Positions 48,670 through 64,000 of a stretch of 64,000 nt of DNA are shown here, one piece after another (the first letter of the stretch is position 1; the number at the start of each line of letters is the position of its first letter). The notes below the pieces were generated by a model. It did not search any database and was not told the DNA's origin. It saw only the letters and a program-made list of their open reading frames with translations. The stretch covers positions 753 to 64,752 of the forward strand of contig DASZMI010000023.1 of NCBI GenBank assembly GCA_035551915.1, written 5' to 3'. The position numbers and the translations under genes are program-made. The DNA is from Solirubrobacteraceae bacterium. Lineage in GTDB: Bacteria; Actinomycetota; Thermoleophilia; Solirubrobacterales; Solirubrobacteraceae.

Positions 48670-49529
48670 TCAGGATCGGGACGCGCGGCAGCGCGCTCGC
48701 GCTCGCCCAGGCCAAGCTCGTCGCCGGCGCGCTCGGCGACGAGGTCGAGCTGGTCACGATCACCACCTCCGGCGATCGCGGCGAGGCGCTGGGCGACAAG
48801 TCACGCTGGACCTCCGCGCTCGAGCGGGCCCTGCTCGCCTGCGAGATCGACGTCGCCGTGCACTCGGCCAAGGACGTGCCGGGGGAGCTGGCCGAGGGCA
48901 CATGCATCGCTTGCCTACCCGAGCGCCAGGATCCGCGCGACGCTCTATGTGGCTTCGCCGATTTCGCGTCGCTCGGATCTGGCGCTCGTGTAGGGACGAG
49001 CAGCATTCGGCGAGCAGCTCAGCTCCGCGCGCTGCGCGACGACATCGAGGTCGTCGAGCTGCGCGGCAACGTCGACACGCGCCTGCGCAAGCTCAAGGAG
49101 GGTGCAGTCGACGCACTCGTACTTGCTGCCGCAGGGCTCGAGCGCCTCGGCCGCGAGAGTGAGATCGGCGGCGTGCTCGATCTGGTTCCGGCGCCCGGCC
49201 AGGGAGCGCTGCTGGTGCAGGCGAGGGCGGGCGACGCGCGAGCCCGTCACATCAACGATCCCCTGACTGAGCGTTGCGTCATGTCCGAAAGGGCGCTCGC
49301 GAGCCAGCTGAACGCCACATGCAACACCCCGCTCGGGGCGAGCGCAGTGCCCGCTTCCGGGCATGACGTGACGCTCAGAGCCTGGATCGGCCTGCCCGAC
49401 GGCTCCCACTGGATCACCGACGAGCTCACGGGCAGAAGCGAAGAGGTGGCTGCGCTGGTGGCAGAGCGGATGATCGCCGCCGGGGCGAGCGAACTGCTGG
49501 AGCGGGCCGCGGAGATGGCGGCCGCATGA
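48666..49529 (+). CDS. hemC: Hydroxymethylbilane synthase
   Basis: GTRGSALA, VHSAKD, GTSSIRR, RGNVDTRL, ATCNTP. Confidence 0.96.
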   Translation: MIRIGTRGSALALAQAKLVAGALGDEVELVTITTSGDRGEALGDKSRWTSALERALLACEIDVAVHSAKDVPGELAEGTCIACLPERQDPRDALCGFADFASLGSGARVGTSSIRRAAQLRALRDDIEVVELRGNVDTRLRKLKEGAVDALVLAAAGLERLGRESEIGGVLDLVPAPGQGALLVQARAGDARARHINDPLTERCVMSERALASQLNATCNTPLGASAVPASGHDVTLRAWIGLPDGSHWITDELTGRSEEVAALVAERMIAAGASELLERAAEMAAA

Positions 49530-51010
49530 CCGTCTACCTGGTCGGCGCCGGGCCGGGCGATCCGGGACTGATGACGGCTCGCTCGCTCGAGTTGATCGCC
49601 CGTGCCGACGTGATCATCCACGACCGGCTCATCCCCGCCTCCGCGCTGGATGGCGCGCGCCTGGGCGCGCAGCTGATCTACGCGGGCAAGGAGGGCAGCG
49701 GTGAGCAGGTCCCGCAGAGCGAGATCACCGCGATGCTGGTCGAGCACGGCCGCAGTGCCGACGTCGTGGTGCGGCTCAAGGGCGGTGATCCGTTCGTCTT
49801 CGGCCGCGGGGGGGAGGAGGCGGAGGCGCTGATCGAGGCCGGCATCGCCTTCGAGGTGGTGCCGGGCGTGACCGCGGGCATCGCGGCCCCCGCCTACGCC
49901 GGCATTCCCGTCACCCATCGCGACGCCGCCAGCTCGGTCGCGTTCCTCACCGGCCACGAGGATCCCCGCAAGCCCGACTCGGCGCTCGATTGGCGCGCGC
50001 TCGCCGCCTTCCCAGGGACGCTGATCGTCTACATGGGCGTGCGCCAGCTGGAAGGGATCACCCGCCGCCTGATCGACGGCGGCCGCGCGCCGGAGGAGCC
50101 TGCCGCGCTGGTGCAGCGCGGCACCTTCCCCGGACAGCGCTCGGTCCAGGGCACGCTTGCGACGATCGCCCAGGTGGCCGCCGACAATCAGATCAAGGCG
50201 CCGGCGATCGCCGTCTTCGGGCCGGTCGCCGCGCTGCACGATCGGCTCGGCTGGCTCGAGCGCAGGCCGCTTCACGGCGTCACGGTCGCCGTCACCCGCG
50301 CCCGCGAGCAGGCCTCGCGGCTGGCGGAGCGCCTGCGCGGCCTCGGTGCCGAGGTGATCGTCGCACCCGTGATCAGCACCAGAGCGCTTCCCGGTCCGGC
50401 GCCCGAGCTCGGCGGCTACGACCTGATCTGCTTCACCAGCCCCAACGGGGTCGATGCGCTGTTCGAGCGGCTCGAGAGCGACGGGCTCGACGCACGTGCT
50501 TTCCCGGCGCGCGACAGGGCGCGGGTTGCGGCGATCGGACCGGCAACTGCGCGCGCGCTCAGGCAGCGCGGCATCGCCACCGACGTGATGCCGACCAAGG
50601 CCGTCGGGGAGGCGCTCGCGGAGGCGCTCGGCGATGTGCCAGTCACTCGCGCACTGGTTGCGCGGGCGCGTGAGGCGCGCGATGTTGTGCCGGAGGCGCT
50701 GCGCGAACGCGGCGCCGAGGTCGATGTGGTCGCCGTCTATGAGACGCTCGTCGAGGAGCTCAGCGCCGAGCGGGCCGCGGCCGTGACAGCTGCCGACTTC
50801 ATCACCTTCACCTCCGCCTCGACCGTGCGCAACTTCCTGGCCGCGGTCGGCGGCGCCGAGGCATGGCTGGCGCGCGGCCAGTCACGGCCCCGCGCGGTCA
50901 GCATCGGGCCTGTGACCAGCGAGGAGCTGCGCCGGCACGGCCTCGGGCCCGACGTCGAAGCGGCGGAGCACGACATCGACGGCCTGATCGCTGCGATCAT
51001 CGGCGCGTGA
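49526..51010 (+). CDS. cobA: Uroporphyrinogen-III C-methyltransferase / uroporphyrinogen-III synthase fusion (CobA-HemD)
   Basis: [26 protein letters not shown]; HemD half VAVTRA, FTSPNGV, FTSASTV, SIGPVT. Confidence 0.95.
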
Positions 51011-51840
51011 CGCAGAGCAGCATGCCGCCGGTCATCACGCTTCTGACCGATTACGGCGTCGCTGACGAGTTCGTCGGGGTGCTGCACGGCGTGATTGCCC
51101 AGATCTGTCCCAACGCGCGGGTGATCGACCTGGCGCACGGGGTGCCGCGGCAGGACATCAGGACTGGCGCTGGGATCCTGTTGCACGCGCTCCGCTACAT
51201 GCCGGTCGGGATCCACGTTGCCGTGATCGACCCGACCGTGGGCAGCGAGCGCCGCGCGGTCGCGCTGCGCCTGGCCGACGATCGCATCCTGGTCGGCCCC
51301 GACAACGGCCTGCTGTGGCCGGCGGCGGTGGCCGGTGGCGGGGTGGCGCAGGCGATCGAGATCTCGGCGTCACGATGGCGCCTGGAGCCTGTCTCGGCGA
51401 CCTTCCATGGGCGCGACATCTTCGTTCCAGTTGCCGCGCGCCTGGCGGCCGGGGAGCAGCTGGACGCGGCCGGGCGGGCGCTCGACCCCGCGCAGCTGGT
51501 GCAGATCGAGACCCCGCGCGCGAGCGCCCAGAGCGGCGTCGTGCTGGCGGCGGCGGTCGGTGCCGACGGCTTCGGCAACGTGCAGCTGGGCGCGGTGCAC
51601 GAGGACCTCGAGACCGCCGGTCTGGGGCTGGGCGACCGTGTGCGGCTCACGCTCGATTCGGGAGCGGTGCACATGGGGACATACGCGCTCACCTTCAGCG
51701 ACGTCGCCGATGGCGACCTGCTCCTGTTCGAGGACTCGACGATGCAGCTCGCCCTCGCTGTCAACCGCGGCAGCGCGGCAGATCTGCTCGGCGTGCGCGC
51801 CGGGCAGCAGCTGCGAATCAGCTCCGCTCGCGAGTCGTGA
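51007..51840 (+). CDS. DUF62 SAM hydroxide adenosyltransferase (SAM hydrolase) family
   Basis: ITLLTDYG, VIDPTVGSERR, GPDNG, SATFHGRDIF, DGFGN. Confidence 0.9.
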   Translation: MTQSSMPPVITLLTDYGVADEFVGVLHGVIAQICPNARVIDLAHGVPRQDIRTGAGILLHALRYMPVGIHVAVIDPTVGSERRAVALRLADDRILVGPDNGLLWPAAVAGGGVAQAIEISASRWRLEPVSATFHGRDIFVPVAARLAAGEQLDAAGRALDPAQLVQIETPRASAQSGVVLAAAVGADGFGNVQLGAVHEDLETAGLGLGDRVRLTLDSGAVHMGTYALTFSDVADGDLLLFEDSTMQLALAVNRGSAADLLGVRAGQQLRISSARES

Positions 51841-52541
51841 CAGGTCCGGGCCGGCGCTGCCGCCTTGGCCGCCCACGCGTGCACCTGCGCGAGGCCGCGT
51901 CCACCAACGTCGTCGCGCGCGACCTCGCCGCCCGCGGCGCCCCCCACGGGACGCTCGTCACCGCTGATCGGCAGACCGCCGGCCGCGGGCGTCAGGGCCG
52001 CGCCTGGCTCGCACCGCCGGGAGCGTCGCTGCTGTGCTCGTGGGTGATCCGCGACCACGGCTCGTTGCTGTCACTGGCCGCCGGAGTCGCGGTCGCCGAG
52101 CTCGCGGGCCCGCGAGCGCTCGTCAAGTGGCCCAACGACGTGCTGATCGACGGCCGCAAGCTCTCGGGCGTCCTCGTCGAGGGAAGGCCGCAGGAGAACT
52201 GGGCGGTGCTGGGGATCGGCATCAACGTCGCCCTGCGCGTCGAGCAGCTGCCCGTGGGGCTGCGCGATCGTGCCGCGACCCTGGGGCTCGCCAAGGATGA
52301 TCTCGAGCCGACGCTCGCGCGCCTGCGCGACGGTCTGGAGCACTGGCTCGCCGCCACCGAGGCCGACGTGCTGGAGGCTGTGCGGGCCCGCGACGCGCTG
52401 CGCGGACGGCCGCTGCGCTGGGACGGTGGCAGCGGCACCGGCGCCGGGATCGATGGCGCCGGGCGCCTGCTGGTCGACCTCGCCGACGGCTCGAGCGTGG
52501 CGCTCGACGCCGGCGAGGTCCACCTCGGCCTCGGCAGCTGA
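51837..52541 (+). CDS. birA: Biotin--protein ligase (no HTH)
   Basis: STN, QTAGRGRQGRAW, KWPND, KLSGVL, GIGINV. Confidence 0.95.
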   Translation: MTGPGRRCRLGRPRVHLREAASTNVVARDLAARGAPHGTLVTADRQTAGRGRQGRAWLAPPGASLLCSWVIRDHGSLLSLAAGVAVAELAGPRALVKWPNDVLIDGRKLSGVLVEGRPQENWAVLGIGINVALRVEQLPVGLRDRAATLGLAKDDLEPTLARLRDGLEHWLAATEADVLEAVRARDALRGRPLRWDGGSGTGAGIDGAGRLLVDLADGSSVALDAGEVHLGLGS

Positions 52542-52620
52542 ACGCGTCGCAGGCCGGGTCGGCCGGCGGCCGACAAACTGCCTACTCCCTGGCCAGCATG
52601 GGCGTACAGGCGGCCGGGTG

Positions 52621-52635
52621 CAAAGCAATGCTTTG
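52621..52635. promoter_or_regulatory. Palindrome upstream of the permease-relic/nitrilase unit
   Basis: CAAAGCA-A-TGCTTTG. Confidence 0.45.
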
Positions 52636-52693
52636 AACTGCTCAAGCTGATCAAGCTCTGGCAATGATGCCGGGACCGGGATAGCGTCAGCCC

Positions 52694-52894
52694 ATGGAAA
52701 GCATCACGTCAGGCTCGGAGGGGCCGCGTCCCGAGCTGAGCCTCGTCGACGCAGCAGCCCTCTCGATCTGGCTGGTGCTCGGCATCGCGGTCGTGGGCTT
52801 CGCCCCGAGACTGGCTGGGTGCGTCAGGGCCGGACTCGCCGGGGGCACGCTCGAAGCCACCACGCCGAGCCCGGCGACGGAGCCGCTGGCGTGA
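52694..52894 (+). pseudogene. Probable internally deleted APC amino-acid permease relic
   Basis: RPELSLVDAAALSI joined to WLVLGIAVVGFAPRLA..VRAGL; stop overlaps the nitrilase GTG. Confidence 0.5.
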
Positions 52895-53727
52895 CCCTGA
52901 TCGCCTGCTGTCAGCTCGCGCCGGTGCTGGGCGACCTCGCCGGCAACGCACAGCGCGCCCAGGCGGCGATCGATCAGGTGATCGCTGCGGGTGCAGAGGT
53001 TGTCGTGCTGCCCGAGCTGTGCACCTCGGGCTACGTGTTCGAGAGCCAGCACGAGGCGGCGTCGGTGGCGATCGGCCGCGACGACCCGGTCCTAGCGGGG
53101 TGGGCGAGAGCGGCTACCGACAGCGGCGCCGTGATCGCGGGGGGCTTCTGCGAGCACGGGCAGGACGGTCTGATCTACAACAGCGCCGCCGTGTTCCCCG
53201 GCTCGGGACCGCCGGCCTTCTACCGCAAGCTGCACCTCTGGGACCGCGAGAAGCTGTGGTTCGCGCCCGGCAGCGAGCTCCCGCCGGTGATCGACTCGCC
53301 GGTCGGCAAGGTCGCGGTGATCGTCTGTTATGACCTCGAGTTCCCCGAGCTGACGCGCGCGCTGGCGCTGGCCGGCACGCAGCTGCTGCTGGTTCCGACC
53401 AACTGGCCGGTCGTTGCCAGGCCCGCCGGCGAGCGTCCGGCCGAGGTCGTGACCGCGATGGCCGCCGCCGGCGCCAACCGCATGGCGATCGCTTGCGCCG
53501 ACCGCTGCGGCACGGAGCGCGGCCAGGACTGGGAACAGGGCACGACGATCGTCGGCCCCGACGGCTGGGTGCGCGCGGAGAGCCGCGAGCCCGGGCCGCT
53601 CACCGCCGAGGTCGACCTCATGGCGGCGCTGCGGAAGCGCCACACCGATCTCGCCGACGCGTTCGGCGACCGCCGCCCCGACTTCTACGGGTCGGTTGCG
53701 GGTGCGCCCGCTGGCGCACCCCACTGA
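52891..53727 (+). CDS. Nitrilase-superfamily carbon-nitrogen hydrolase (amidase)
   Basis: VLPEL, YNSA, YRKLHLW, VCYDLEFPE (E-K-C triad). Confidence 0.93.
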   Translation: MTLIACCQLAPVLGDLAGNAQRAQAAIDQVIAAGAEVVVLPELCTSGYVFESQHEAASVAIGRDDPVLAGWARAATDSGAVIAGGFCEHGQDGLIYNSAAVFPGSGPPAFYRKLHLWDREKLWFAPGSELPPVIDSPVGKVAVIVCYDLEFPELTRALALAGTQLLLVPTNWPVVARPAGERPAEVVTAMAAAGANRMAIACADRCGTERGQDWEQGTTIVGPDGWVRAESREPGPLTAEVDLMAALRKRHTDLADAFGDRRPDFYGSVAGAPAGAPH

Positions 53728-54629
53728 AGCCGCGACGCCACCACCCGCGACCACTCGTCGATCAGCTCGACGATCTCATTGACGCCGCGGCTGAGCTGCA
53801 CGCCACGGCGCGTGACGAGCGCGAAGAAGTCGAAAAACTGCTCGGCGAAGCTCACCGCCGTGAGCGCCTCGAGCATCGGCGAGCCGCCCAGCACCGCGCG
53901 CGCGACCATCGTGTTGCCGAGCCCGCGCGCACACAGCTGCAGCGCTGTCTCGACATGCTCGACCTCCATCCGCGGGTCGATCGTGATCCCAGCCTCCTGC
54001 GCCCGTGCGGCCAGCTGGCGGCGCGTCGGGTCGTTGAAGCCGTAGCTGACGTCGTAGAGGATCAGCGGTGTGGCGGCGACCTTGGCGATCGTCGCTGGAT
54101 GCCGTGTCAGCTCGTGGTCGGCGCTGACGAACAGAACCTCGTCGCGGAACAGCGCGCGCACATCGAGCAGCGAGTCGTCGACCGGGAGCACGACCAGACC
54201 GGCCTCGAGCTCGCCCTCCTGGACGGCCCGCGCGACGTCGTAGGAGTTCTGGCCGCGCATGCGCAGGATCCCGTCGGGGTGCTGCTCGACGAAGCGCGCG
54301 GCCAGATCGGCGATGTCGTAATACGGGGCGTTGCGAAAGGTCCCGAGGGTGACCAGCCGCCGGCCCTGCTCGCTGCGGCGCCCGACTGAGGCCTGGGCGT
54401 CGTCGGCGGCGTCGGTCACGCGCCGGGCGTGGCCGAGGAAGGTTCTGCCCGCCGCTGTCAGCGTCAGCCCGCGGCCGGTGCGCGCAAACAGTGAGACGCC
54501 CAGCTCCTGCTCGAGCCGGCGCACCTGATCAGAGACCGCCGGCTGAGTGCAATGCAACGTCCGCGCCGCCGCGTTGAACGAGCCGAGCTCAGCGGCGATG
54601 CGGAAGTAGAGCAGTTGCTGGAGGGTCAA
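53685..54629 (-). CDS. LysR family regulator
   Basis: GSFNAAARTLHCTQPAVSDQVRRLEQELG..LF.R. Confidence 0.95.
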   Translation of the reverse strand: MTLQQLLYFRIAAELGSFNAAARTLHCTQPAVSDQVRRLEQELGVSLFARTGRGLTLTAAGRTFLGHARRVTDAADDAQASVGRRSEQGRRLVTLGTFRNAPYYDIADLAARFVEQHPDGILRMRGQNSYDVARAVQEGELEAGLVVLPVDDSLLDVRALFRDEVLFVSADHELTRHPATIAKVAATPLILYDVSYGFNDPTRRQLAARAQEAGITIDPRMEVEHVETALQLCARGLGNTMVARAVLGGSPMLEALTAVSFAEQFFDFFALVTRRGVQLSRGVNEIVELIDEWSRVVASRLQWGAPAGAPATDP

Positions 54630-54699
54630 GGCTTTCCTTTGAACTGGCGAAGGAAGTCTAACCGTGGTTTTTCAGCGGATGCTGATTTAGGCTCGCGCG

Positions 54700-55995
54700 A
54701 TGGACGAACCCGTTTACCTCAAATCACCCGCGGTCACCGCCACGGCTGCCCGCGATCGCTCGGTCAGTGAGCGCGTTTCCGAAATGCTGTCGACGATCGA
54801 GGCAGGCGGAATCGACGCTGTCCGCAACTACTCGCGCGAGCTCGACCGCTGGGCCCCCGACGACTTCGAGGTCGGCCCGGAGGCGGTCGCCGCCGCGGAG
54901 GCGTCGCTGAGTGACGAGCTGAAGGCGAGCATTGCCTTCGCGCAGACCCAGATCCGCAGCTTCGCCCAGGCGCAGCGCAACACGCTCACCGACTTCGAGA
55001 AGGAGACGCTGCCCGGCGTCTTCCTCGGCCAGAAGCAGATCCCGATCGCCAAGGTCGGCGCCTACTGCCCGAGTGGGCGGGTGCCGATGCTGGCCTGCGC
55101 GTTCATGACGGTGCTCGTGCCGAAGGTGGCCGGCGTCCACACCGTGATCGCCTGCACGCCACCGCGCGGCGGTGACTTCCACGCGCCGACGCTGCACGCG
55201 ATCGCGACCTCCGGTGCGGACCGCATCTTTGCGCTCGGCGGCGTCCAGGCGCTGGCGGCGATGGCCTTCGGACTGCTCGGCTACGACCTCGGGGGAGTCG
55301 ACATGCTCGTCGGCCCCGGCAACGCATTCGTCGCCGAGGCCAAGCGCCAGCTGTTCGGGCGCGTCGGCATCGATCTGCTCGCCGGCCCCTCCGAGGTGGC
55401 GGTGATCGCCGATCACAGCGCCGACCCCGAACTGGTCGCCGCCGACCTGCTCGCCCAGGCCGAGCACGGACCGACCTCCCCCGCCGTGCTGATCACGACC
55501 TCCGAGGAGCTCGGCCGCGCGGTGATCGATCAGATCGCCCGTCAGCTCGACGCCCTGGACGCACTCGGCGGTGGCGTCGGCGAGACGCCGCGCACCGCCT
55601 GGAACGACTACGGCGCCGTGATGCTCGCAAGCGACCGTGAGCACGCCGCCCAGCTCTCGGACATCGTCGCCACCGAGCACCTCGAGGTCCACACGACCGA
55701 GGACGAGTGGTACCACCGGCGCCTGCGCAACTACGGCTCGCTCTTCCTCGGGCAGCGCGCGACCGTCGCGTTCTCCGATAAGGCGATCGGCACCAACCAC
55801 ACGCTTCCGACTGGGCACGCCGCGCGCTACACGGGCGGCCTCTCGGTGGCGAAGTTCCTCAAGACGCTCACCTACCAGCGGATCGACAGCGACGCGGGCG
55901 TCCGCGCGATCGCCCCGCACGTCGTCGAGATCTCGCGGTCGGACCTGATGCCCGCCCACGAGGCGAGCGCGGCCAAGCGGCTCGAGCGCGTGTGA
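54700..55995 (+). CDS. Histidinol-dehydrogenase-family enzyme (HisD paralog, HpsN-like)
   Basis: GPGNAFV.EAK, AGPSE, QAEHG, EHL, GTNHTLPT; FSDK in place of HisD GDY. Confidence 0.88.
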   Translation: MDEPVYLKSPAVTATAARDRSVSERVSEMLSTIEAGGIDAVRNYSRELDRWAPDDFEVGPEAVAAAEASLSDELKASIAFAQTQIRSFAQAQRNTLTDFEKETLPGVFLGQKQIPIAKVGAYCPSGRVPMLACAFMTVLVPKVAGVHTVIACTPPRGGDFHAPTLHAIATSGADRIFALGGVQALAAMAFGLLGYDLGGVDMLVGPGNAFVAEAKRQLFGRVGIDLLAGPSEVAVIADHSADPELVAADLLAQAEHGPTSPAVLITTSEELGRAVIDQIARQLDALDALGGGVGETPRTAWNDYGAVMLASDREHAAQLSDIVATEHLEVHTTEDEWYHRRLRNYGSLFLGQRATVAFSDKAIGTNHTLPTGHAARYTGGLSVAKFLKTLTYQRIDSDAGVRAIAPHVVEISRSDLMPAHEASAAKRLERV

Positions 55996-56013
55996 CGCCG
56001 GAGCCCGGCAACG

Positions 56014-56037
56014 GGGGCGGGCCAGCGGGCCCGCCCC
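56014..56037. terminator. Hairpin between the convergent hisD-like and lacI genes
   Basis: GGGGCGGGCC-AGCG-GGCCCGCCCC. Confidence 0.55.
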
Positions 56038-56049
56038 GCCTTCGGGCGG

Positions 56050-57150
56050 CTAACGACCGGGCGGCGGACCGAGCGTACGGCGGATCACCAGCCGGGGCTC
56101 GAACACCATCCGCCGGATCGCATCGCTCTCGACTCGGCCCTCGATGCGCTCGATCAGCAGCCGCACGGCGGCACGGGCCATCTCCTCCATCGGCTGGCGC
56201 ACCGTGGTCAGCCCGAACAGGTCCCACGCGGCCATCGGCAGATCGTCGAAGCCGACCAGCGACACGTCGCCGGGCACCGGCAGGCCAAGCGTGTAGGCGG
56301 CGTTGAGTGCGCCGATCGCGACTATGTCGTTGGCGCAGATGACGACCGTCGGTCGCGGCACCTGTCGCATCAGGTCGGTCATCGCCTGGTAGCCGGCGCC
56401 GTCGGTGAACGGAGCGTGGCGCACGGCGCTGTCGGGCAGTTCGATTCCGGCCGAGGTCAGCGCGGCTCGGACCCCGCGCTCGCGATCGCGGCCGGTGCTG
56501 GTGTCGCTGGGGCCGAAGATCGCGGCGACGTTCGTGTGGCCCAGGCGAAGCGCCTCGGCCGTCGCCAGCGAGCCGCCGAGTGAGTTGTCCACGACGGCGC
56601 TGTCGGCGGCGACGCCGTCGACGTAGCGGGTGAGGAACACGAACGGAAGCGCGCGCCGGGCGAGTTCCCGCGGAACGACGCCATCGAGGCGGCTGGTGGT
56701 CAGAACGACGCCGTCGGTCGAGCGGTCGAGCAGGCGGTCGAGCAGCGGCGTCAGCTCCTCCTCGTTGGGGGAGCTACCGGCGCCGGCCAGCGGCTCAACC
56801 TCCTCTGTGAGCAGGACCATGCGGTAGCTATGCGCCCACGCCTCGTCGTGCAGCGGCGCCACGAGGTGGGGATAGAAGACGTTGGCGAGGTCGGTGATGA
56901 CGATCGCGATGCTGCGTGTCGAGCGCGTGACGAGGCTGCGACCGACGTCACTGGGAACGTAGCCGAGCTCGGCCGCGGCGGCCAGCACGCGGTCACGCGT
57001 CGCGCTGGCCACGCGCTCGTCGTTGCGCAGTACGCGTGAGACCGTCGACTGCGAGACCCCGGCGGCGCGGGCCACGTCGTGGCTGGTCATGCTGCGTCCC
57101 GCGCCCTCGGTGCGCGGCCGCGTGAGGTCTTGGTTGACGGGTGAGGACAT
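56050..57150 (-). CDS. LacI family regulator
   Basis: TSHDVARAAGVSQSTVSRVL, AAELGYVP, ANDIVAIG, VSLVGFDD, LTTVRQP. Confidence 0.95.
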   Translation of the reverse strand: MSSPVNQDLTRPRTEGAGRSMTSHDVARAAGVSQSTVSRVLRNDERVASATRDRVLAAAAELGYVPSDVGRSLVTRSTRSIAIVITDLANVFYPHLVAPLHDEAWAHSYRMVLLTEEVEPLAGAGSSPNEEELTPLLDRLLDRSTDGVVLTTSRLDGVVPRELARRALPFVFLTRYVDGVAADSAVVDNSLGGSLATAEALRLGHTNVAAIFGPSDTSTGRDRERGVRAALTSAGIELPDSAVRHAPFTDGAGYQAMTDLMRQVPRPTVVICANDIVAIGALNAAYTLGLPVPGDVSLVGFDDLPMAAWDLFGLTTVRQPMEEMARAAVRLLIERIEGRVESDAIRRMVFEPRLVIRRTLGPPPGR

Positions 57151-57218
57151 TGGTGCGGAAGGTATAACAATGCCAACGCCCCGGCCAGCGGGGCGAGGCT
57201 GACGAAAGTGGAGCGACG

Positions 57219-58364
57219 TTGAGTGCACGGATCCTGACAACACACGTGGGCAGCCTGCCCCGCTCAAAGCGGGTGGTCGAGCTGGTGTCGGCCCAGGATC
57301 GCGACGAGCCGGTCGACCGGGTCGAACTCGAGCGCGTGATCGGCGCGGCCGTCTCCGACGCCGTCGCCCGCCAGGTGCAGAGCGGCATCGATGTCGTCTC
57401 GGACGGCGAGATGAGCAAGATCAGCTACGCCACCTACATCCGCCACCGGCTTTCGGGATTCGAGATCGACGAGGTTCCGCGTGCAACTCCGGCCGACCTC
57501 GACGCCTTCCCCTCGTTCAAGGCGCGACTGGCCGAACAGGGTGGAACGCCGCGCTACCTGAGGCCGGTCTGCCGCGGCCCGATCCGCTACGTCCATCCCG
57601 AGCCGCTCGCCGCCGACATCGCGCACCTTCTGGCCGCCCGCGAGGGTCAGCCGGTCACCCAGGCCTTTATGAACGCGCCGTCTCCCGGCGTGATCGCGCT
57701 CTTCCAGCCCAACGAGTTCTACGCATCCGGCGACGAGTACCTCGATGCGCTGGCCGAGGCGATGGCGACCGAGTACCGGGCGATCGTCGAGGCCGGGCTG
57801 ATGCTGCAGATAGACGCGCCCGACCTCGGCATGGGGCGCCACATCATGTACCGCGACCGCACGGAGCGGGAGTTCCTCATGGCCGCGCACAAGCACGTCG
57901 AGGCGCTCAACGCGGCGCTCGAGGGCATTCCCGCCGAGCGCGTGCGCATGCACATCTGCTGGGGCAATTACGAGGGCCCTCACCACTGCGACATCGGCGT
58001 CGAGCGGATCCTCGATCTCATCTTTGCGGCCAAGCCGCACTACCTGCTGTTCGAGGGCGCCAACCCGCGCCACGAGCACGAGTGGGAGGTGTGGGCGGCA
58101 GCGAGGATCCCCGACGACAAGGTGCTGGTGCCCGGCGTGATCGACTCGACCACCAACTACATCGAGCATCCGTGCCTCGTCGCCCAGCGGCTGCGACGCT
58201 TCGTCGAGATCGTCGGCGCCGAGCGTGTGCTGGCGGGCACCGATTGCGGCTTCGGCACCTTCGCCGGCTTCGGCGCCGTCGACCCGGAGATCTGCTGGGC
58301 CAAGCTGCGCTCGCTGGCCGACGGGGCCGAGCTGGCGCTGGCGGGCACCCCCGCAGCGCTCTGA
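57219..58364 (+). CDS. Cobalamin-independent methionine synthase II family (MetE C-domain, Zn thiol-alkyltransferase)
   Basis: TTHVGSLPR, HICWGNYEGPH, EGANPRH, TDCGF. Confidence 0.9.
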   Translation: MSARILTTHVGSLPRSKRVVELVSAQDRDEPVDRVELERVIGAAVSDAVARQVQSGIDVVSDGEMSKISYATYIRHRLSGFEIDEVPRATPADLDAFPSFKARLAEQGGTPRYLRPVCRGPIRYVHPEPLAADIAHLLAAREGQPVTQAFMNAPSPGVIALFQPNEFYASGDEYLDALAEAMATEYRAIVEAGLMLQIDAPDLGMGRHIMYRDRTEREFLMAAHKHVEALNAALEGIPAERVRMHICWGNYEGPHHCDIGVERILDLIFAAKPHYLLFEGANPRHEHEWEVWAAARIPDDKVLVPGVIDSTTNYIEHPCLVAQRLRRFVEIVGAERVLAGTDCGFGTFAGFGAVDPEICWAKLRSLADGAELALAGTPAAL

Positions 58365-58381
58365 TCATCGCGCTGCCTGGT

Positions 58382-58426
58382 CCCGACTCCCGCCTCGCTG
58401 GGCCTCCTGCCCGACTCCCGCCTCGC
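58382..58426 (+). repeat. 17-bp direct repeat, two copies
   Basis: CCCGACTCCCGCCTCGC at 58382 and 58410. Confidence 0.8.
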
Positions 58427-58468
58427 GGACCCTTGGTGCCCCTGCCAAGGTACTCGCGGTACGTCTGA

Positions 58469-58571
58469 CAAATACGTAGTCACGTTTCTTTCGTCGGAAT
58501 TCGCCTGTAGTTACGGGCAATTGCCCGGCATAAAATTCTGACTTGACTACGTATGCATAACTGTTCATACT
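58469..58571 (+). promoter_or_regulatory. Promoter with two LacI-type operators
   Basis: TTGACT (58543)-17-CATACT (58566); CG-centred boxes CAAATACGTAGTCA (58469) and TGACTACGTATGCA (58544). Confidence 0.7.
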
Positions 58572-58614
58572 CATCCCCGGAGCGTGGAGCCGTCGGTGGC
58601 ATTCCACGGATGGA

Positions 58615-59250
58615 ATGGGAAAGAGGGAGCAGAGGACGATGGGCGATGTGCCGAACGATGACCTCATGGCGGGTAGGGTCAGCCGCTTTGCAGAGATGAA
58701 GCAGAACGGGACCGCGGTGATGTTCATCGACAGCATCCTGCCCGGCCACCACCGGATGAACTACGCCGTGATCGGCGACACCGCATCGGAGAACACCGAG
58801 TTCAAGCCGATGATCACGGCGCCGCACAAGTTCCAGATCGGCATGTTCGAGGCGCCTCCTGGCAATGGCCCCGGCTGGCACACGCATGATTACGTCGAGA
58901 TGTTCGTGCCGCTCACCGGGCGCTGGCGCTTCTGTTACGGGCTCAACGCGGAAGATCCCGATGATCTGCTCGGCGACTACATCCTCGAGCAGTGGGATGC
59001 GATCTCGTTCCCGCCCGGCCTGTGGCGCCGATTCGAGAACGCCTCGGAGGAGAACGCCTGGGGCTTCGCGGTGCTCGACCCGCACGAGCACTTCCAGAGC
59101 CCCGACCCGCAGTGGCCCGAGTTCATGATTCGCCAGGCCGAGGAGCATGGACTGCGCACCGACGAACGCGGGCAGATGGTCCAGCCAGAGAACTTCGCGG
59201 ATCTCGAGCGCGAGATCACCGAGAAGATCTACCCGACGGCGAAGCTCTGA
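58615..59250 (+). CDS. Cupin-domain protein
   Basis: PPGNGPGWHTHDYVEMF, ISFPPGLWRRFEN; start 58615 or 58639. Confidence 0.85.
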   Translation: MGKREQRTMGDVPNDDLMAGRVSRFAEMKQNGTAVMFIDSILPGHHRMNYAVIGDTASENTEFKPMITAPHKFQIGMFEAPPGNGPGWHTHDYVEMFVPLTGRWRFCYGLNAEDPDDLLGDYILEQWDAISFPPGLWRRFENASEENAWGFAVLDPHEHFQSPDPQWPEFMIRQAEEHGLRTDERGQMVQPENFADLEREITEKIYPTAKL

Positions 59251-59365
59251 GCGAGCTGAACCCGGGGAACGTGACGGTAACTCGGAGAGGGTGGAGCCGA
59301 ATGGATATGGGACAGATGACGATCGCCGCTCTGTGGAGCGTCGGTCGCACGGGGGAGCCGGCGCG

Positions 59366-60133
59366 ATGACGGTCGTGCTCGAGGCGCGTGACGTGGTCAA
59401 GCGCTATGGACACGTGACCGCGCTCAACGGCGCCTGCTTCCAGGCGCACGAGGGCGAGGTCACGGCGCTGATCGGGGACAACGGCGCCGGCAAATCGACC
59501 TTCGTCAAGGTGCTGTCAGGAGTGATCGCCGCCGACAGCGGCGAGATCGCGCTGTCCGGTGCCAAGACCGACCTCGGCTCGCCGCAGCACGCCAAGCGGC
59601 TCGGGATCGAGACTGTCTTCCAGGACCTTGCGCTTGCGCCGGACCTGGGGCCCGCGGACAACGTCTTCGTCGGACGCGAGTTGTTCAAGCCCGGGTGGCG
59701 CGGGCGGCTGCGGATTCTCGACAAGGCCGAGATGCGGCGTCGGGCGCTCGATGCGTTCGTCTCGATGGGCACCGACGTCAAGGACATGCATGCGCCTGTC
59801 GCTGCCCTGTCCGGCGGCCAGAAGCAGAGCGTCGCGATCTGCCGCTCGGTGATGTGGGCCAACAAGGTGCTGTTCCTCGACGAGCCGACTGCAGCGCTTG
59901 GCGTGCGCCAGACCCGCAACGTACTGCGGCTGGTCAAGCATGTGGCCGAGCGCGGGGTCGCGGTGATCCTGATCAGCCACAACATGACCGAGGTGCTAGA
60001 GGCCGCGGACCGCATCGAGGTGCTGCGCCTCGGGCAGCGGGTCGCCCAGTACAAGGCCGACCAGACCAACGTCGAGGAGCTGGTCGGCGCGATGACCGGC
60101 GCGCTCGACCTGCATGAGGAGACGCAACCGTGA
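59366..60133 (+). CDS. Sugar ABC transporter ATP-binding protein (single NBD)
   Basis: GDNGAGKS, GIETVFQDLAL, LSGGQKQ, LDEPTAALG. Confidence 0.95.
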   Translation: MTVVLEARDVVKRYGHVTALNGACFQAHEGEVTALIGDNGAGKSTFVKVLSGVIAADSGEIALSGAKTDLGSPQHAKRLGIETVFQDLALAPDLGPADNVFVGRELFKPGWRGRLRILDKAEMRRRALDAFVSMGTDVKDMHAPVAALSGGQKQSVAICRSVMWANKVLFLDEPTAALGVRQTRNVLRLVKHVAERGVAVILISHNMTEVLEAADRIEVLRLGQRVAQYKADQTNVEELVGAMTGALDLHEETQP

Positions 60134-61194
60134 ACGTTCCCGGCGGCACCACCTCGGCCGCGGACCGGCCGGAGCCCGCTTCATCGGCGGCGCAGGCAAC
60201 GTCTGACCTCCTCACCGAGGATTGGCGCCGGACGCTGACGCGCACGCTGAACGTCTCACCGACGTACATGTTCGGCGTGCTGCTGAGCGTCTTCATCGCC
60301 TTCACGATCATCAACCCGAGCGCCTTCACCTCGACCGGGAACCTGCAGAACATCACCGAGACCGCGGCGCCATACCTGGTGATGGCCGTCGCCGTCACTT
60401 ACCTGATGATCGCCGGCGGCCTCGACCTCTCGGTCGGCTCGGTGCTCGTCTTCGCCAATGTGATCGCGGCCAAGGTCATGGGCGCCATCGGCGGCAACGG
60501 GACCTTCCCCGTGCTCGTCGGTCTGCTGGCCGGTCTCGGCGTGGGCGCGGGCTGGGGCCTGTTCAACGGCTTCTGCGTGACGAAGCTGCGAGTGCCGGCG
60601 CTGATCACGACGCTCGGCACGCTCGGTGCCGTGCTTGGTGCAGCCGACCTGCTGACCGCCGGCAATGACATCCGCTCGGTGCCGCTGTCGCTGATCAACT
60701 TCGGCACGGGCACGTTCCTGGGCCTGAACTACATCGTCTGGATCGCGATCGGTGTCACGCTCGTGTTCGGGCTGATGCTGCACCTCACCCAGTTCGGCCG
60801 CCACACCTACATCGTCGGCTCGAACATCGAGGCGGCTCGCCGCGCCGGCGTCAACGTCGATCGGCATCTCTTCAAGCTCTACGCACTGTCCGGCGCAGCG
60901 GCCGGACTCGCCGGGTTCCTCGCGCTGGGGCAGTTCGCGTCGACAACGATTTCCGGCCACAGCACCGACGTGATCATCGTGATCACCGGCGTGGTGCTGG
61001 GCGGAACCAGCCTCTTCGGGGGCTACGGATGGATGATCGGGACGGTGATCGGGATCCTGATCCCGACGACCCTCAACATCGGGTTGGTCATCGCCAACGT
61101 CCAGCCGTTCTGGCAGCAGGTCGCCACCGGATTGATTCTGATCGCGGCCGTCTACCTTGACCAACTCAAGCGCCGTTCACGGGAGCGGACTTGA
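60130..61194 (+). CDS. Sugar ABC transporter permease (RbsC-like)
   Basis: GGLDLSVG, ITTLG, GSNIEAARRAGV, VLGGTSLFGG. Confidence 0.95.
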   Translation: MNVPGGTTSAADRPEPASSAAQATSDLLTEDWRRTLTRTLNVSPTYMFGVLLSVFIAFTIINPSAFTSTGNLQNITETAAPYLVMAVAVTYLMIAGGLDLSVGSVLVFANVIAAKVMGAIGGNGTFPVLVGLLAGLGVGAGWGLFNGFCVTKLRVPALITTLGTLGAVLGAADLLTAGNDIRSVPLSLINFGTGTFLGLNYIVWIAIGVTLVFGLMLHLTQFGRHTYIVGSNIEAARRAGVNVDRHLFKLYALSGAAAGLAGFLALGQFASTTISGHSTDVIIVITGVVLGGTSLFGGYGWMIGTVIGILIPTTLNIGLVIANVQPFWQQVATGLILIAAVYLDQLKRRSRERT

Positions 61195-61196
61195 AC

Positions 61197-62213
61197 ATGA
61201 AGGAGGAGAGCAGGGTGCCTTACCTACGTCGCCCAGGATTGGGTGCAGTCGCTTTGGCGGCCATCGCTGCGGGCGGAATTGCCGCCTCGTCGGCGTCCGC
61301 TTCGACCCACGCGCGTGCCGCCGGCAAGTACAGCGTGGTCTACATCCCGGGCCTGACCGGGAATCCGTTCTACTCAACCGTCGCCTGTGGCGCCGCGGTA
61401 GAGGCCAAGAAGCTCGGTGTGAGCTTCTCGATGCAGGGCGCCCCGACCTTCGCGGTCAACGCCCAGACGCCTGTCGTCAACGCCGTGGCTGCGCGCCATC
61501 CCACGGCGATCATGATCTCCAACGACGATCCGAAGGCGATGATCCCGCCGCTGCTCAAGGCGCAGGAGGCCGGCATCAAGATCATCAACATCGATGGTGA
61601 CCTCGCCGAGAAGAGCATCGGCATCACCAACATCCAGTCCAACGACACCCTCGGTGGCCAGGAGGCCGGTCAGGAGATGGCCAAGCTCACCGGTGGCAGG
61701 TCCGGCACAGTCCTGATCGAGGACAACTCGCCCGGCTACCTGGTCAGCGAGCAGCGCCGCGACGGGCTGATCGGCTACCTCAAGAAGCACGACCCCAAGG
61801 TCAAGATCCTGCCGATCACCTACACGAACAACGAGGTGTCAACGGCCGCCTCCGACGTGCGCGCAGCTGCAACGGCGCACTCGGATTTGATCGGCGTCTA
61901 CACCGTCGAGACCAACAACACGCAGGGCGCCCTGACGGGCCTCCAGGCAGCTCACCTGACCGGCAAGGTCAAGCTGATCGGCTTCGACACATCGTCGCCG
62001 ATCGTCGCCGGAATCAGGTCTGGCCAGGTCAGTGCCGACATCGTGCAGTACCCCTACGGCGAGGGCATGATCGGCCTCCAGGACGCCGTCATGGCGGCCC
62101 AGGGCAAGAAGGTTCCGCGTGAGCAGAGCCAGCCGTTCGTGGTGGCCACCAAGGCCAACATAAACACCCCGAAGGTCCAGCGGTTCATCTACAAGACCAG
62201 CTGCTCGGCGTGA
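61197..62213 (+). CDS. Sugar ABC transporter substrate-binding protein (RbsB-like)
   Basis: Signal peptide, NPFY, ID, RRDG, IGFD, VQYPY; alternative GTG start at 61215. Confidence 0.92.
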   Translation: MKEESRVPYLRRPGLGAVALAAIAAGGIAASSASASTHARAAGKYSVVYIPGLTGNPFYSTVACGAAVEAKKLGVSFSMQGAPTFAVNAQTPVVNAVAARHPTAIMISNDDPKAMIPPLLKAQEAGIKIINIDGDLAEKSIGITNIQSNDTLGGQEAGQEMAKLTGGRSGTVLIEDNSPGYLVSEQRRDGLIGYLKKHDPKVKILPITYTNNEVSTAASDVRAAATAHSDLIGVYTVETNNTQGALTGLQAAHLTGKVKLIGFDTSSPIVAGIRSGQVSADIVQYPYGEGMIGLQDAVMAAQGKKVPREQSQPFVVATKANINTPKVQRFIYKTSCSA

Positions 62214-63391
62214 GTCCCTCACGCTCTGAGCACGGAGCGAACGGAAAGGGGAGCGCGGAAACGCGCTCCCCCGACCACTCCGGGCAGGCCTTGCGCTTCA
62301 CTCCCGCGCCCGATTATTCGATCTCCGTCCGCGCTCGCCGCTCGCGCGATCTGCGCTCCGCCGACCAGGGTGAGCGCGTCCAGCCGATGCGCGGCTTCGA
62401 GGACGGCTACGTCGACATCGTCGACTGGATCATCCGGATCACCGACAGGATCTGGGAAGACCAGGACGTCGGCTACATCTACGACACCTACCGCACGGGC
62501 TGCCGCGTCTTCACCGACTCCGGCCCGATGTACCACGTCGAGCCGGTCGTCGAGGCCACGGTACAGTCGATCAACGCCTTTCCCGACGCTCGCCACATCG
62601 CCGACGATGTGGTCTGGGCCGGCAACGAGGACGAGGGTTTCGCCACCTCCCACCGTGCCATCAACGTCGGTCATCACCTGGGACCGTGGCGCTGGGGCGC
62701 GGCGACCGGTCGCAAGATCCAGATGTGGGTGATCGCCAACTGTGTCTCGGAGGAGAACCAGATCTTCGAGGAGTGGGTGCTCTACAACCAGGTCGCCCGC
62801 CTGCGGCAGTGCGGCATCGACGTCGTCGCCGCGGCGCGTCGCTGGGGTAACGAGGGGTTGAGCATGCCGATCTCGGAGCGCGAGGTCACCGAGGTCGAGC
62901 GCCTGATCGGCGGCCGTATTCCGGTTCCGGCGGCTGAGCCCTCGGCCACCACCGATGACATCGACGGGCTCATGCGGGCGCTGTTCCACAACGTCTACAA
63001 CCGCCGTGACCTGAGCGCGATCGAGCGGCTCTATGCGACCAACGTGCGCTGGCACGGCGGCAGCGATCGCGAGGGCTACGGACGCGCCGACGTACGCGCG
63101 ATGGCACGCAACCTGCTCGCGACCTTCCCGGACCTGGGAGTCAACGTCGACGAGGTCTACTGGATGGGCAATGCGGCCGAGGGCTATGCCATCTCGGTGC
63201 GCTGGACCGGGATCGGAACCCACCGTGGCTACGGTCTCTACGGCGATCCGACAGGGCGCCGGGTGCACATCTGGGGGCTGTCGCAGCTGTACATCCGGGA
63301 GGGACGCATCGTCGAGGAGTGGGCGCTTTTCAACGAGTTCGACGTGCTCGCCCAGCTGCTCGCCGACACACCCGCACCGGTCCTGCCCTGA
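62210..63391 (+). CDS. Tandem SnoaL/NTF2-like (ester cyclase) domain protein
   Basis: Two repeats of AFPD/TFPD...G.H.G....TGR...I.EEW.L. Confidence 0.88.
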   Translation: MSPSRSEHGANGKGSAETRSPDHSGQALRFTPAPDYSISVRARRSRDLRSADQGERVQPMRGFEDGYVDIVDWIIRITDRIWEDQDVGYIYDTYRTGCRVFTDSGPMYHVEPVVEATVQSINAFPDARHIADDVVWAGNEDEGFATSHRAINVGHHLGPWRWGAATGRKIQMWVIANCVSEENQIFEEWVLYNQVARLRQCGIDVVAAARRWGNEGLSMPISEREVTEVERLIGGRIPVPAAEPSATTDDIDGLMRALFHNVYNRRDLSAIERLYATNVRWHGGSDREGYGRADVRAMARNLLATFPDLGVNVDEVYWMGNAAEGYAISVRWTGIGTHRGYGLYGDPTGRRVHIWGLSQLYIREGRIVEEWALFNEFDVLAQLLADTPAPVLP

Positions 63392-63398
63392 GCAGCCA

Positions 63399-64000
63399 GT
63401 GAGCTCGATCGCGCCAGGGTTCGCCGGTCGCCTGCAGAGACGCGAGCGGCTGCGGCTGCTGTTCGTCAAGCTGCCGTGCCCGGCTGAGGTCGAGCTCGCG
63501 GGCCGCACCGGGTTCGGCGCCGTGATCCTCGACACAGAGCATGGGACCGCTGACGGTCTCGAGCATCATCTGCGGGCGGCCGACGCCGCCGGCATCCCGG
63601 CGCTGGTGCGTGTGCCCAACACCGATCCGGTGCCGATCCTGCGGGCGCTCGACGCCGGTGCGGTCGGGGTCGTGGTCGCTCACGTGACCGGGCCGGAGGT
63701 TGCCGCTGCGGCGGTGGCCGCCGCCCATTACCGGCCGCGTGGTGAGCGCGGGCTTGCGCTGACCACGCGGGCCGGGCTCTACGGGACGGCCACGCTGGAC
63801 GCTCACCTCGCCCGCGCGCTCGAGCAGACCGTCGTGATCGTCCAGATCGAGGACGCCGAGGCGGTCGATCGCGCGGAGGCGATCCTCTCCGTGGATGGGG
63901 TCGACGGGGTCCTGATCGGCGCGACCGACCTATCGGTCTCGCTCGGTCATCCGGGAGCCACACAGCATCCTGCGGTGGTGGCGGCCACCGAGGCGATCAC
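63399..64000 (+). CDS. HpcH/HpaI class II aldolase, 3' truncated by the window
   Basis: Not in the ORF track; manual translation gives VILDTEHG, LVRVP, RALDAGAVG, YRPRGERG, VQIED, IGATDLS. Confidence 0.9.
   Translation, partial: MSSIAPGFAGRLQRRERLRLLFVKLPCPAEVELAGRTGFGAVILDTEHGTADGLEHHLRAADAAGIPALVRVPNTDPVPILRALDAGAVGVVVAHVTGPEVAAAAVAAAHYRPRGERGLALTTRAGLYGTATLDAHLARALEQTVVIVQIEDAEAVDRAEAILSVDGVDGVLIGATDLSVSLGHPGATQHPAVVAATEAI

Follow-up and report, generated by a model that had tools for sequence, protein, structure and literature searches.

The HisD-family dehydrogenase encoded at the locus described here has its closest solved relatives in the HpsN enzymes ((R)-2,3-dihydroxypropanesulfonate 3-dehydrogenases), which in Cupriavidus pinatubonensis belong to the hpsNOP-suyAB system (structures 8v35 and 8wwe; PMC11382572). 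HpsN carries the motif G-R-Y-A/S-H, in which the final His126 caps the Zn ion and then binds the sulfonate, whereas histidinol dehydrogenase (HisD) has G-S-A-P-L there (PMC11382572). The locus lies at the right end of a 64,000-nucleotide stretch (C23:753–64752; hereafter the window) of a metagenome-assembled genome from a Solirubrobacteraceae bacterium (2.4 Mb, 75% complete, approximately 70% G+C), and the public runs containing this stretch are soil metagenomes, with no RNA run listed among them. An earlier note had proposed an uptake-and-breakdown cluster with dedicated regulators that matches no characterized pathway. The gene families present and their co-occurrence in many genomes bear out the first part of this proposal. 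For the second part, no curated family model names the cluster members, and literature searches on the gene set (combinations of HisD, SnoaL, nitrilase, cupin, and LacI) found no described pathway. We interpret the region as the core of a single catabolic regulon of approximately 14 genes, extending from a CN-hydrolase gene (starting at 52819) to a second HisD-family gene, that would import and oxidatively degrade a small polar, sugar- or cyclitol-like compound with hydroxymethyl groups and probably amide or amine nitrogen. The probability of this interpretation is estimated at about 70%.

Profile scans of the window proteins with Pfam and NCBIfam found all genes named in the earlier note to be present and intact. 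The tandem-SnoaL protein has 1329 relatives, with identities of 65–94% in actinomycete and Solirubrobacterales-type genomes. When it was used to scan one genome per species, 64 related loci were obtained (42–85% SnoaL identity) in Actinomycetota, Dormibacterota, Chloroflexia, and Gammaproteobacteria. Neighbors within 10 kb of the SnoaL gene were counted by tblastn with the window proteins and by clustering of all open reading frames (ORFs) of each locus; these counts are lower bounds, as several of the 64 loci are truncated by contig ends. A HisD-like gene occurs near SnoaL in 55 of the 64 loci and stands directly upstream of it in 30, and 25 loci have at least two HisD-like genes. Transporter genes are found in 54 loci, LacI homologs (44–77% identity) in 51, a cupin or bicupin gene in 51, an alpha/beta-hydrolase gene in 47, and a CN-hydrolase gene in 45 (immediately downstream of the tandem SnoaL gene in 38). 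The other recurrent neighbors are a short-chain dehydrogenase/reductase (SDR; 34/64), LysR homologs with 45–49% identity that are divergent from HisD-like genes (33/64), and an HpcH aldolase (30/64). The type of transporter varies by locus, including CUT2 and CUT1 ATP-binding cassette (ABC) systems, major facilitator superfamily (MFS) proteins, and, in Gammaproteobacteria, a TonB receptor with a sodium/solute symporter family (SSF) protein. The enzymes remain constant, a pattern that fits the uptake of one solute. The co-occurrence that the earlier note proposed to check is found in four phyla, and an association of these genes far beyond chance is confirmed by this recurrence together with a common cis-element (82 sites vs. 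none in shuffled sequence).

This cis-element is a LacI-type operator with the family consensus TGCATACGTATGCA, a perfect palindrome. When two mismatches were allowed, 82 sites were found in 52 of the 64 loci and none in shuffled sequence, with a single site lying inside a labeled gene. The sites are located upstream of genes for bicupins (44), LacI (26), HisD-like enzymes (15), HpcH aldolases (15), MFS transporters (10), ABC ATPases (7), cupins (5), LysR (5), and SnoaL (4). In the window, two sites related to this CG-centered palindrome lie in the cupin promoter region. The stronger one, TGACTACGTATGCA (58544–58557), overlaps the −35 box of a sigma-70-like promoter upstream of the cupin gene (TTGACT-17-CATACT, 58543–58571, + strand), which is the sole promoter of this type found between 52.5 and 59.4 kb; the weaker one is CAAATACGTAGTCA (58469–58482). 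The identical 14-mer TGACTACGTATGCA also stands upstream of the cupin gene in seven related loci (L002–L006, L014, and L065) and upstream of the LacI/bicupin genes in Saccharopolyspora. The LacI-family repressor itself (56050–57090, − strand, with the ATG at 57090 read from the sequence; PF00356 and PF13377) combines a helix-turn-helix domain with a periplasmic-binding-protein fold, and the CG-centered palindrome occurs at the promoters that it is predicted to regulate. The sharing of one operator in front of cluster genes argues for one regulon, and there is strong sequence-based evidence that the LacI protein controls one functional gene set.

Other regulatory elements were also observed. 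The LysR-family regulator gene (53685–54629, − strand; PF00126 and PF03466) is divergent from the first HisD-family gene. A general repeat search found no inverted repeats in the spacers, and a custom scan found TTCCTT-N10-AAGGAA in the LysR/HisD-like spacer (54634–54655), a candidate LysR site with a putative function. In loci with a type-B dehydrogenase (see below), a different conserved box, ATAGGxAAACCCTAT, replaces this repeat. In addition, TAGGCT is found 6 nt before the ATG of the window dehydrogenase (54686–54699) and TAGCGT at the same distance in type-B loci, which suggests leaderless or very short-leader transcripts. The MetE-like and cupin genes are separated by a 270-bp spacer of lower G+C. 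Between its two LacI-type sites lies a near-perfect palindrome, ACGGGCAATTGCCCGG (58513–58528), with a perfect 14-bp core, CGGGCAATTGCCCG; this may be the site of a second regulator.

The HpsN-like, Zn- and NAD-dependent HisD-family enzyme of the window (54700–55995, + strand; PF00815, 409 bits, profile positions 6–411) has 372 bits and approximately 50% identity to HpsN (CpHpsN, 8v35; also 8wwe) and 236 bits to HisD. It shares the fold and PF00815 membership of HisD, scores above the TIGR00069 cut-off, and is expected to share the Zn/NAD four-electron alcohol-to-acid chemistry. Compared with 8v35, it keeps QAEH, EH, the Asp-Lys pair, and the C-terminal His; the Zn-ligand positions (Gln, His, Asp, and His) align; and both the catalytic Glu318/His319 and Asp352-Lys353 are retained, with EHLEV and SDK aligning to EHLEV and GDK. 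At the position of the HpsN motif, it reads G-R-V-P-M, and all 75 of the HisD-like proteins linked to the cluster lack the sulfonate-binding His (G-R-[VFY]-P-[ML]). We infer that a carboxylate of the substrate, held by the retained Lys, may provide the axial Zn ligand instead. Three subclades can be recognized among these proteins. Subclade A (GRVPMLA/FSDKAIGTNH) is the LysR-linked type of the window, subclade B (GRFPL[LT]A/YSDKGAGTNH) is encoded directly upstream of SnoaL in most actinomycetes, and subclade C (GGRYPxxA/YGDKVIGTNH) is encoded beside the SDR and is the sole type in gammaproteobacterial loci.

The type-A enzyme is not a canonical HisD, as it has GRVPM in place of G-S-A-P-L and SDK in place of GDY, lacks a his-operon context, and coexists with a separate canonical HisD with GDY encoded elsewhere in the genome, on C107. 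Assignment as a DHPS (2,3-dihydroxypropanesulfonate) dehydrogenase was likewise rejected, given that the His126 motif is missing and no context of linked hpsO/hpsP and desulfonating-enzyme genes is present. The resemblance to the HpsN system extends to an SDR gene beside the second HisD-like copy in related loci. However, the actinomycete loci lack a conserved HpsP-type partner (the gammaproteobacterial locus L062 has a medium-chain alcohol dehydrogenase), and the cluster has no desulfonating enzyme, its neighbors being SnoaL, cupin, CN-hydrolase, aldolase, and hydrolase genes. Judged by their motifs, the cluster dehydrogenases form a third group of putative four-electron alcohol-to-acid oxidases, which are neither HisD nor defined DHPS dehydrogenases.

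The limits of the cluster differ from those first proposed. The genes listed in the earlier note are all present, but the start at 53685 does not hold, as the conserved CN-hydrolase gene to its left (52819–53727, + strand; PF00795, 133 bits; the true start may be later than 52819) is part of the set. This protein is a nitrilase-superfamily, amidase-like enzyme, nearest to archaeal nitrilases and short-chain amidases and under all NCBIfam equivalog cut-offs, with nitriles, amides, and carbamoyl compounds as candidate substrate classes. It is the best match in its own genome to the Amycolatopsis cluster copy (52%). At the other end, the HpcH/HpaI aldolase gene (+ strand; PF03328, 106 bits) begins at 63399, leaves the window at 64000, and ends at L001:3372, equivalent to window position 64871. 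The family assignment of this aldolase stands, with the correction that the protein is a fusion: the ORF (approximately 490 aa) runs on into a PcaD-like alpha/beta-hydrolase domain. Retrieval of the downstream sequence, as the note had advised, completed this fusion and revealed a second HisD-family gene 43 bp after it. This second gene is divided between two contig ends, with its N-terminal part on C23 (L001:3415–3561) and its C-terminal part on C60 (L071:14448–14642), so that the assembly break falls inside the gene and C23 and C60 can be placed as neighbors, with C60 reversed. No SDR gene follows this fragment on C60, where, unlike in close relatives, a convergent ORF of 743 aa comes next; nor was an ortholog of the cluster SDR found in the source genome at its 75% completeness (best match 40%). 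With the conserved CN-hydrolase, the alpha/beta-hydrolase, and the second HisD-family gene included, the unit is larger than originally reported.

The two halves of the fusion protein most resemble class II pyruvate aldolases (GarL, HpaI, and YfaU) and PcaD. In NCBIfam, the closest models are those of 2-dehydro-3-deoxyglucarate aldolase (GarL) and HpaI for the aldolase half (approximately 116 bits vs. cut-offs of 370–400) and that of 3-oxoadipate enol-lactonase for the hydrolase half (PcaD; approximately 104 bits vs. cut-offs of 255–390). A fusion of both domains is not a described arrangement in the literature searched. It is also found in L004 and L005, and it suggests that the two domains act in consecutive steps.

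The tandem SnoaL/NTF2 protein (62210–63391, + strand; PF07366 in two stretches) begins with an extension of approximately 60 aa (62210–62386) that is rich in Arg and Ser and contains the motif RFTPAPDYSISVRARRS; no hydrophobic signal-like stretch was seen on reading it. A RFTPAPDFSISVR-like motif is common to distant homologs, and the conservation of the extension makes the GTG at 62210 the likely start. Invariant polar residues are found in both domains (T87-S88-H89-R90, or TSHR, and R272-W273...H279, or RW..GxH; alignment A1). In Foldseek searches with the AlphaFold 2 (AF2) model (predicted local distance difference test score, pLDDT, 89), the best matches to the full-length protein were the tandem NTF2 epoxide-opening cyclases Lsd19 and MonBI/MonBII, and those to the single domains were SnoaL2, AclR, IdmH, ChaU, and limonene epoxide hydrolase. 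The two Pfam stretches, the model, and these matches agree on two copies of the NTF2 alpha+beta cone fold. A search of the ESM Atlas returned generic SnoaL clusters only. Although the protein resembles Lsd19 in having two NTF2/SnoaL domains in one chain, its identity to Lsd19, MonBI/MonBII, and SnoaL-type cyclases is 10–28%, the invariant residues differ, and the context is catabolic, with importers. A polyketide biosynthetic role was rejected because polyketide synthase genes are absent and the neighbors are importers and catabolic enzymes. We infer that a ring-opening role is plausible.

The cupin gene (58639–59250, + strand; PF07883) encodes a 203-aa monocupin that aligns with the N-terminal half of the bicupin present in most related loci and keeps its H-x-H-x3-E motif (H81-x-H83-x3-E87 being invariant; alignment A2). 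The Foldseek neighbors of its AF2 model (pLDDT 79) are generic cupins only, and PDB sequence searches with the monocupin and the bicupin gave no match. The MetE-like gene (57219–58364, + strand; PF01717) encodes a 381-aa stand-alone MetE C-domain-like (core-MetE-like) protein, which matches only the C-terminal half of 750-aa models, far under the NCBIfam methionine-synthase cut-offs, and matches the PDB entry 1ypx at 41 bits. A putative Zn site, HxC...E...DCG (HICW, FEG, and DCG), was identified by reading of the translation, without a reference alignment. A two-barrel MetE (approximately 750 aa with an N-terminal folate-binding domain) was rejected, given the length of the protein and its single C-terminal barrel. 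The single barrel is shared with core methionine synthase and epoxyalkane:CoM transferase, both of them stand-alone MetE C-domain Zn enzymes, to which the putative HxC...E...C pattern would also correspond, but the score falls far under every methionine-synthase cut-off. With homologs in five of the 64 related loci, in addition to the window, the MetE-like protein is an optional accessory.

The transport genes are contiguous. The ABC ATPase gene (59366–60133, + strand, with the start read from the sequence; PF00005) is followed by genes for a CUT2-type permease (60130–61194, + strand; PF02653; AraH-like at 187 bits, under the cut-off) and a periplasmic sugar-type substrate-binding protein (61191–62213, + strand; PF13407, 152 bits; best PDB match 5dkv, 147 bits, on which the literature searched held nothing relevant). 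CUT2 sugar ATPases normally have two fused nucleotide-binding domains and approximately 500 aa. The ATPase of the window has 255 aa and a single such domain, and NCBIfam CUT2 ATPase models match it with their first half only. For the SDR found in related loci, the closest models are those of the polyol dehydrogenases GolD and DthD, with scores far under the equivalog cut-offs.

Taken together, these genes may be arranged into a tentative route. The binding-protein-dependent ABC importer would take up the compound. LacI would repress the operon that runs from the cupin gene through the ABC, SnoaL, and aldolase/hydrolase genes to the second HisD-family gene by way of the TGCATACGTATGCA-type operator on its promoter, and LysR would control the type-A dehydrogenase. 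Each of the two HpsN-like Zn/NAD enzymes would oxidize a −CH2OH group next to C–OH or C–N to −COOH in the four-electron manner of HisD and HpsN, recognizing something other than sulfonate or imidazole; the compound would have one or two such hydroxymethyl groups. The tandem SnoaL protein could perform cofactor-free enol, enamine, or ring chemistry, and the cupin a metal-dependent cleavage or isomerization. The fused alpha/beta-hydrolase and HpcH aldolase might act on a lactone or beta-dicarbonyl, opening it and releasing pyruvate, and the CN-hydrolase would hydrolyze an amide to set ammonia free. As an optional accessory, the MetE-like Zn enzyme may transfer an alkyl group to a thiol.

Several alternative explanations were weighed against this single regulon. 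Chance adjacency of unrelated units (LysR with the dehydrogenase, LacI with the MetE-like gene, and a sugar ABC operon) would be consistent with the three transcription units, the two regulators, and the restriction of the operators seen in the window to the cupin promoter. However, the gene set recurs in 64 loci of four phyla, and the operator elsewhere precedes HisD-like, bicupin, aldolase, and transporter genes. Being contradicted by both synteny and operator data, this explanation is scarcely credible and was rejected. Catabolism of organosulfonates (DHPS, cysteinolate, or a sulfosugar), with sulfolactate or cysteate as the product of the HpsN-like enzyme, draws on the relationship to HpsN (approximately 50% identity, 372 bits), on the retention of the sulfonate partner Lys353, and on the HpsO-resembling SDR found with the second HisD-like gene in 34 loci. 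Yet the G-R-Y-A/S-H motif with His126 is missing in 75 of 75 cluster-linked proteins, and the conserved neighbors include no SuyAB, Xsc, CuyA, or sulfite-exporter family. In the source genome, at 75% completeness, no Xsc scores above the cut-off, and the only GD_AH protein is encoded on C16, unlinked to the cluster. With the sulfonate His missing and no desulfonating gene linked, a sulfur-containing substrate is unsupported, and the cluster is probably not one for sulfonates; this explanation appears highly improbable. Accordingly, where the earlier note envisaged a route for a cyclic, modified, or sulfur-containing sugar or polyol, the uptake and breakdown are upheld and the sulfur-containing option is not.

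Two further alternatives concern the nature of the sugar-like substrate. A nitrogen-free sugar or polyol (a ketose, branched-chain sugar, or alditol) could have one or both of its ends oxidized, giving an aldonic or aldaric acid that would undergo dehydration and cleavage by the GarL-like aldolase; in this case, the CN-hydrolase would be a metabolite-repair enzyme or an unrelated neighbor. The sugar-type binding proteins and permeases, LacI, the nearest relatives of the aldolase (2-dehydro-3-deoxyglucarate aldolase), hydrolase (the enol-lactonase PcaD), and SDR (GolD/DthD polyol dehydrogenases), and the DUF1537 acid-sugar kinase of the Chloroflexia locus all point in this direction. A bystander role is nevertheless hard to reconcile with a CN-hydrolase gene directly downstream of SnoaL in 38 of 64 loci; moreover, no kinase and no enolase- or IlvD-type sugar-acid dehydratase is conserved, and all equivalog scores are far under the cut-offs. 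Such a substrate is thus considered unlikely. A conjugate of a sugar and an amino acid (an Amadori compound or opine, such as deoxyfructosyl-glutamine or mannopine) would be taken up by the sugar-type transporter, oxidized at its polyol end by the HisD-like enzymes, and deamidated by the CN-hydrolase. In favor of this are the joint presence of a sugar-type transporter, LacI, an amidase, and oxidases that turn alcohols into acids, and the soil origin of the window. However, the amadoriase, deglycase, or kinase of known fructosamine and opine routes is absent, and the gammaproteobacterial versions lack the CN-hydrolase, making this conjugate very unlikely.

Under the interpretation of one regulon for a nitrogen-bearing, sugar- or cyclitol-like compound, a more specific candidate, distinctly improbable as it stands, is that the soil/actinomycete form degrades fungal or lichen mycosporines, such as mycosporine-glutaminol. 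Fungal mycosporines of this kind contain four groups, each of which can be matched to one enzyme: the amino alcohol to the type-A/B dehydrogenase, the carboxamide to the CN-hydrolase, the hydroxymethyl that the ring bears on a tertiary carbinol to the type-C dehydrogenase, and the O-methyl enol to the optional MetE-like enzyme. In such a route, the tandem SnoaL protein would hydrolyze the enaminone and free the amino alcohol, which the LysR-linked type-A/B HisD-like enzyme would oxidize to an amino acid, with the CN-hydrolase taking off the side-chain amide. The MetE-like enzyme, where present, would remove the O-methyl group. The cupin or bicupin could cleave the demethylated reductone ring to a 4-hydroxy-2-oxo acid, the type of substrate used by HpcH-class aldolases; the type-C HisD-like enzyme would oxidize the CH2OH of the tertiary carbinol, and the hydrolase and aldolase would release pyruvate. 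If this is true, the marine versions without a CN-hydrolase would act on mycosporine-like amino acids. Literature searches on mycosporine catabolism and degradation gene clusters found nothing relevant.

Some observations weigh against the single-regulon interpretation. Every catalytic step in the proposed route is deduced by analogy from family chemistry, and the structure models of the SnoaL and cupin proteins yield only generic neighbors. LysR, LacI, and SDR are large families, and some neighbor counts may include unrelated members. The assignment of the CN-hydrolase is challenged by a paralog on C8 that is close behind in similarity to the Amycolatopsis copy (48% vs. 52%). Finally, no LacI operator was seen in the window before the type-A dehydrogenase, MetE-like, or CN-hydrolase genes, such that the membership of these genes rests on synteny elsewhere.

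The tandem SnoaL gene is rare among relatives of the source organism, being found in three of 401 sampled genomes of the phylum and in none of eight sampled genomes of the family (two of which are of the same genus). The G+C content of the operon (0.64–0.67 at 58000–63000) is lower than that of its surroundings (0.70–0.735 at 49000–57000). This low G+C, together with the absence from the eight same-family genomes, suggests horizontal acquisition, and the cluster resembles an accessory island with a patchy distribution. Variation was also seen among the related loci. In the Chloroflexia locus, one HisD-family gene is broken up into two ORFs that overlap (L061:11001–12346; Pfam positions 5–174 and 171–411), which is a frameshift or sequencing error; this locus also has five tandem-SnoaL paralogs, a DUF1537 acid-sugar kinase, and a DAO-type oxidase. 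In Amycolatopsis marina (L007:12595–15888), the genes that come after the cluster encode a DUF6314 protein, a BCCT betaine/choline/carnitine transporter, and a FAD/NAD/2Fe-2S reductase of the type that partners Rieske oxygenases.

The new elements reported here are the soil/actinomycete form with its module of LysR, type-A/B dehydrogenase, SnoaL, and CN-hydrolase; the operator consensus and regulon map; the aldolase-hydrolase fusion; and the three dehydrogenase subclades. Annotations routinely label the dehydrogenase as histidinol dehydrogenase or count it as the DHPS marker hpsN, so that this subfamily may be inflating surveys of sulfonate cycling. For identification of the substrate, the shared operator and the binding protein provide direct experimental handles. 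Known enzyme families in a repressor-controlled catabolic operon are a known kind of arrangement, but there is a real chance that this one may hide an undescribed pathway of wide ecological reach. Conservation this broad, across four phyla, points to a compound that is common in the environment and for which no bacterial breakdown has been described.

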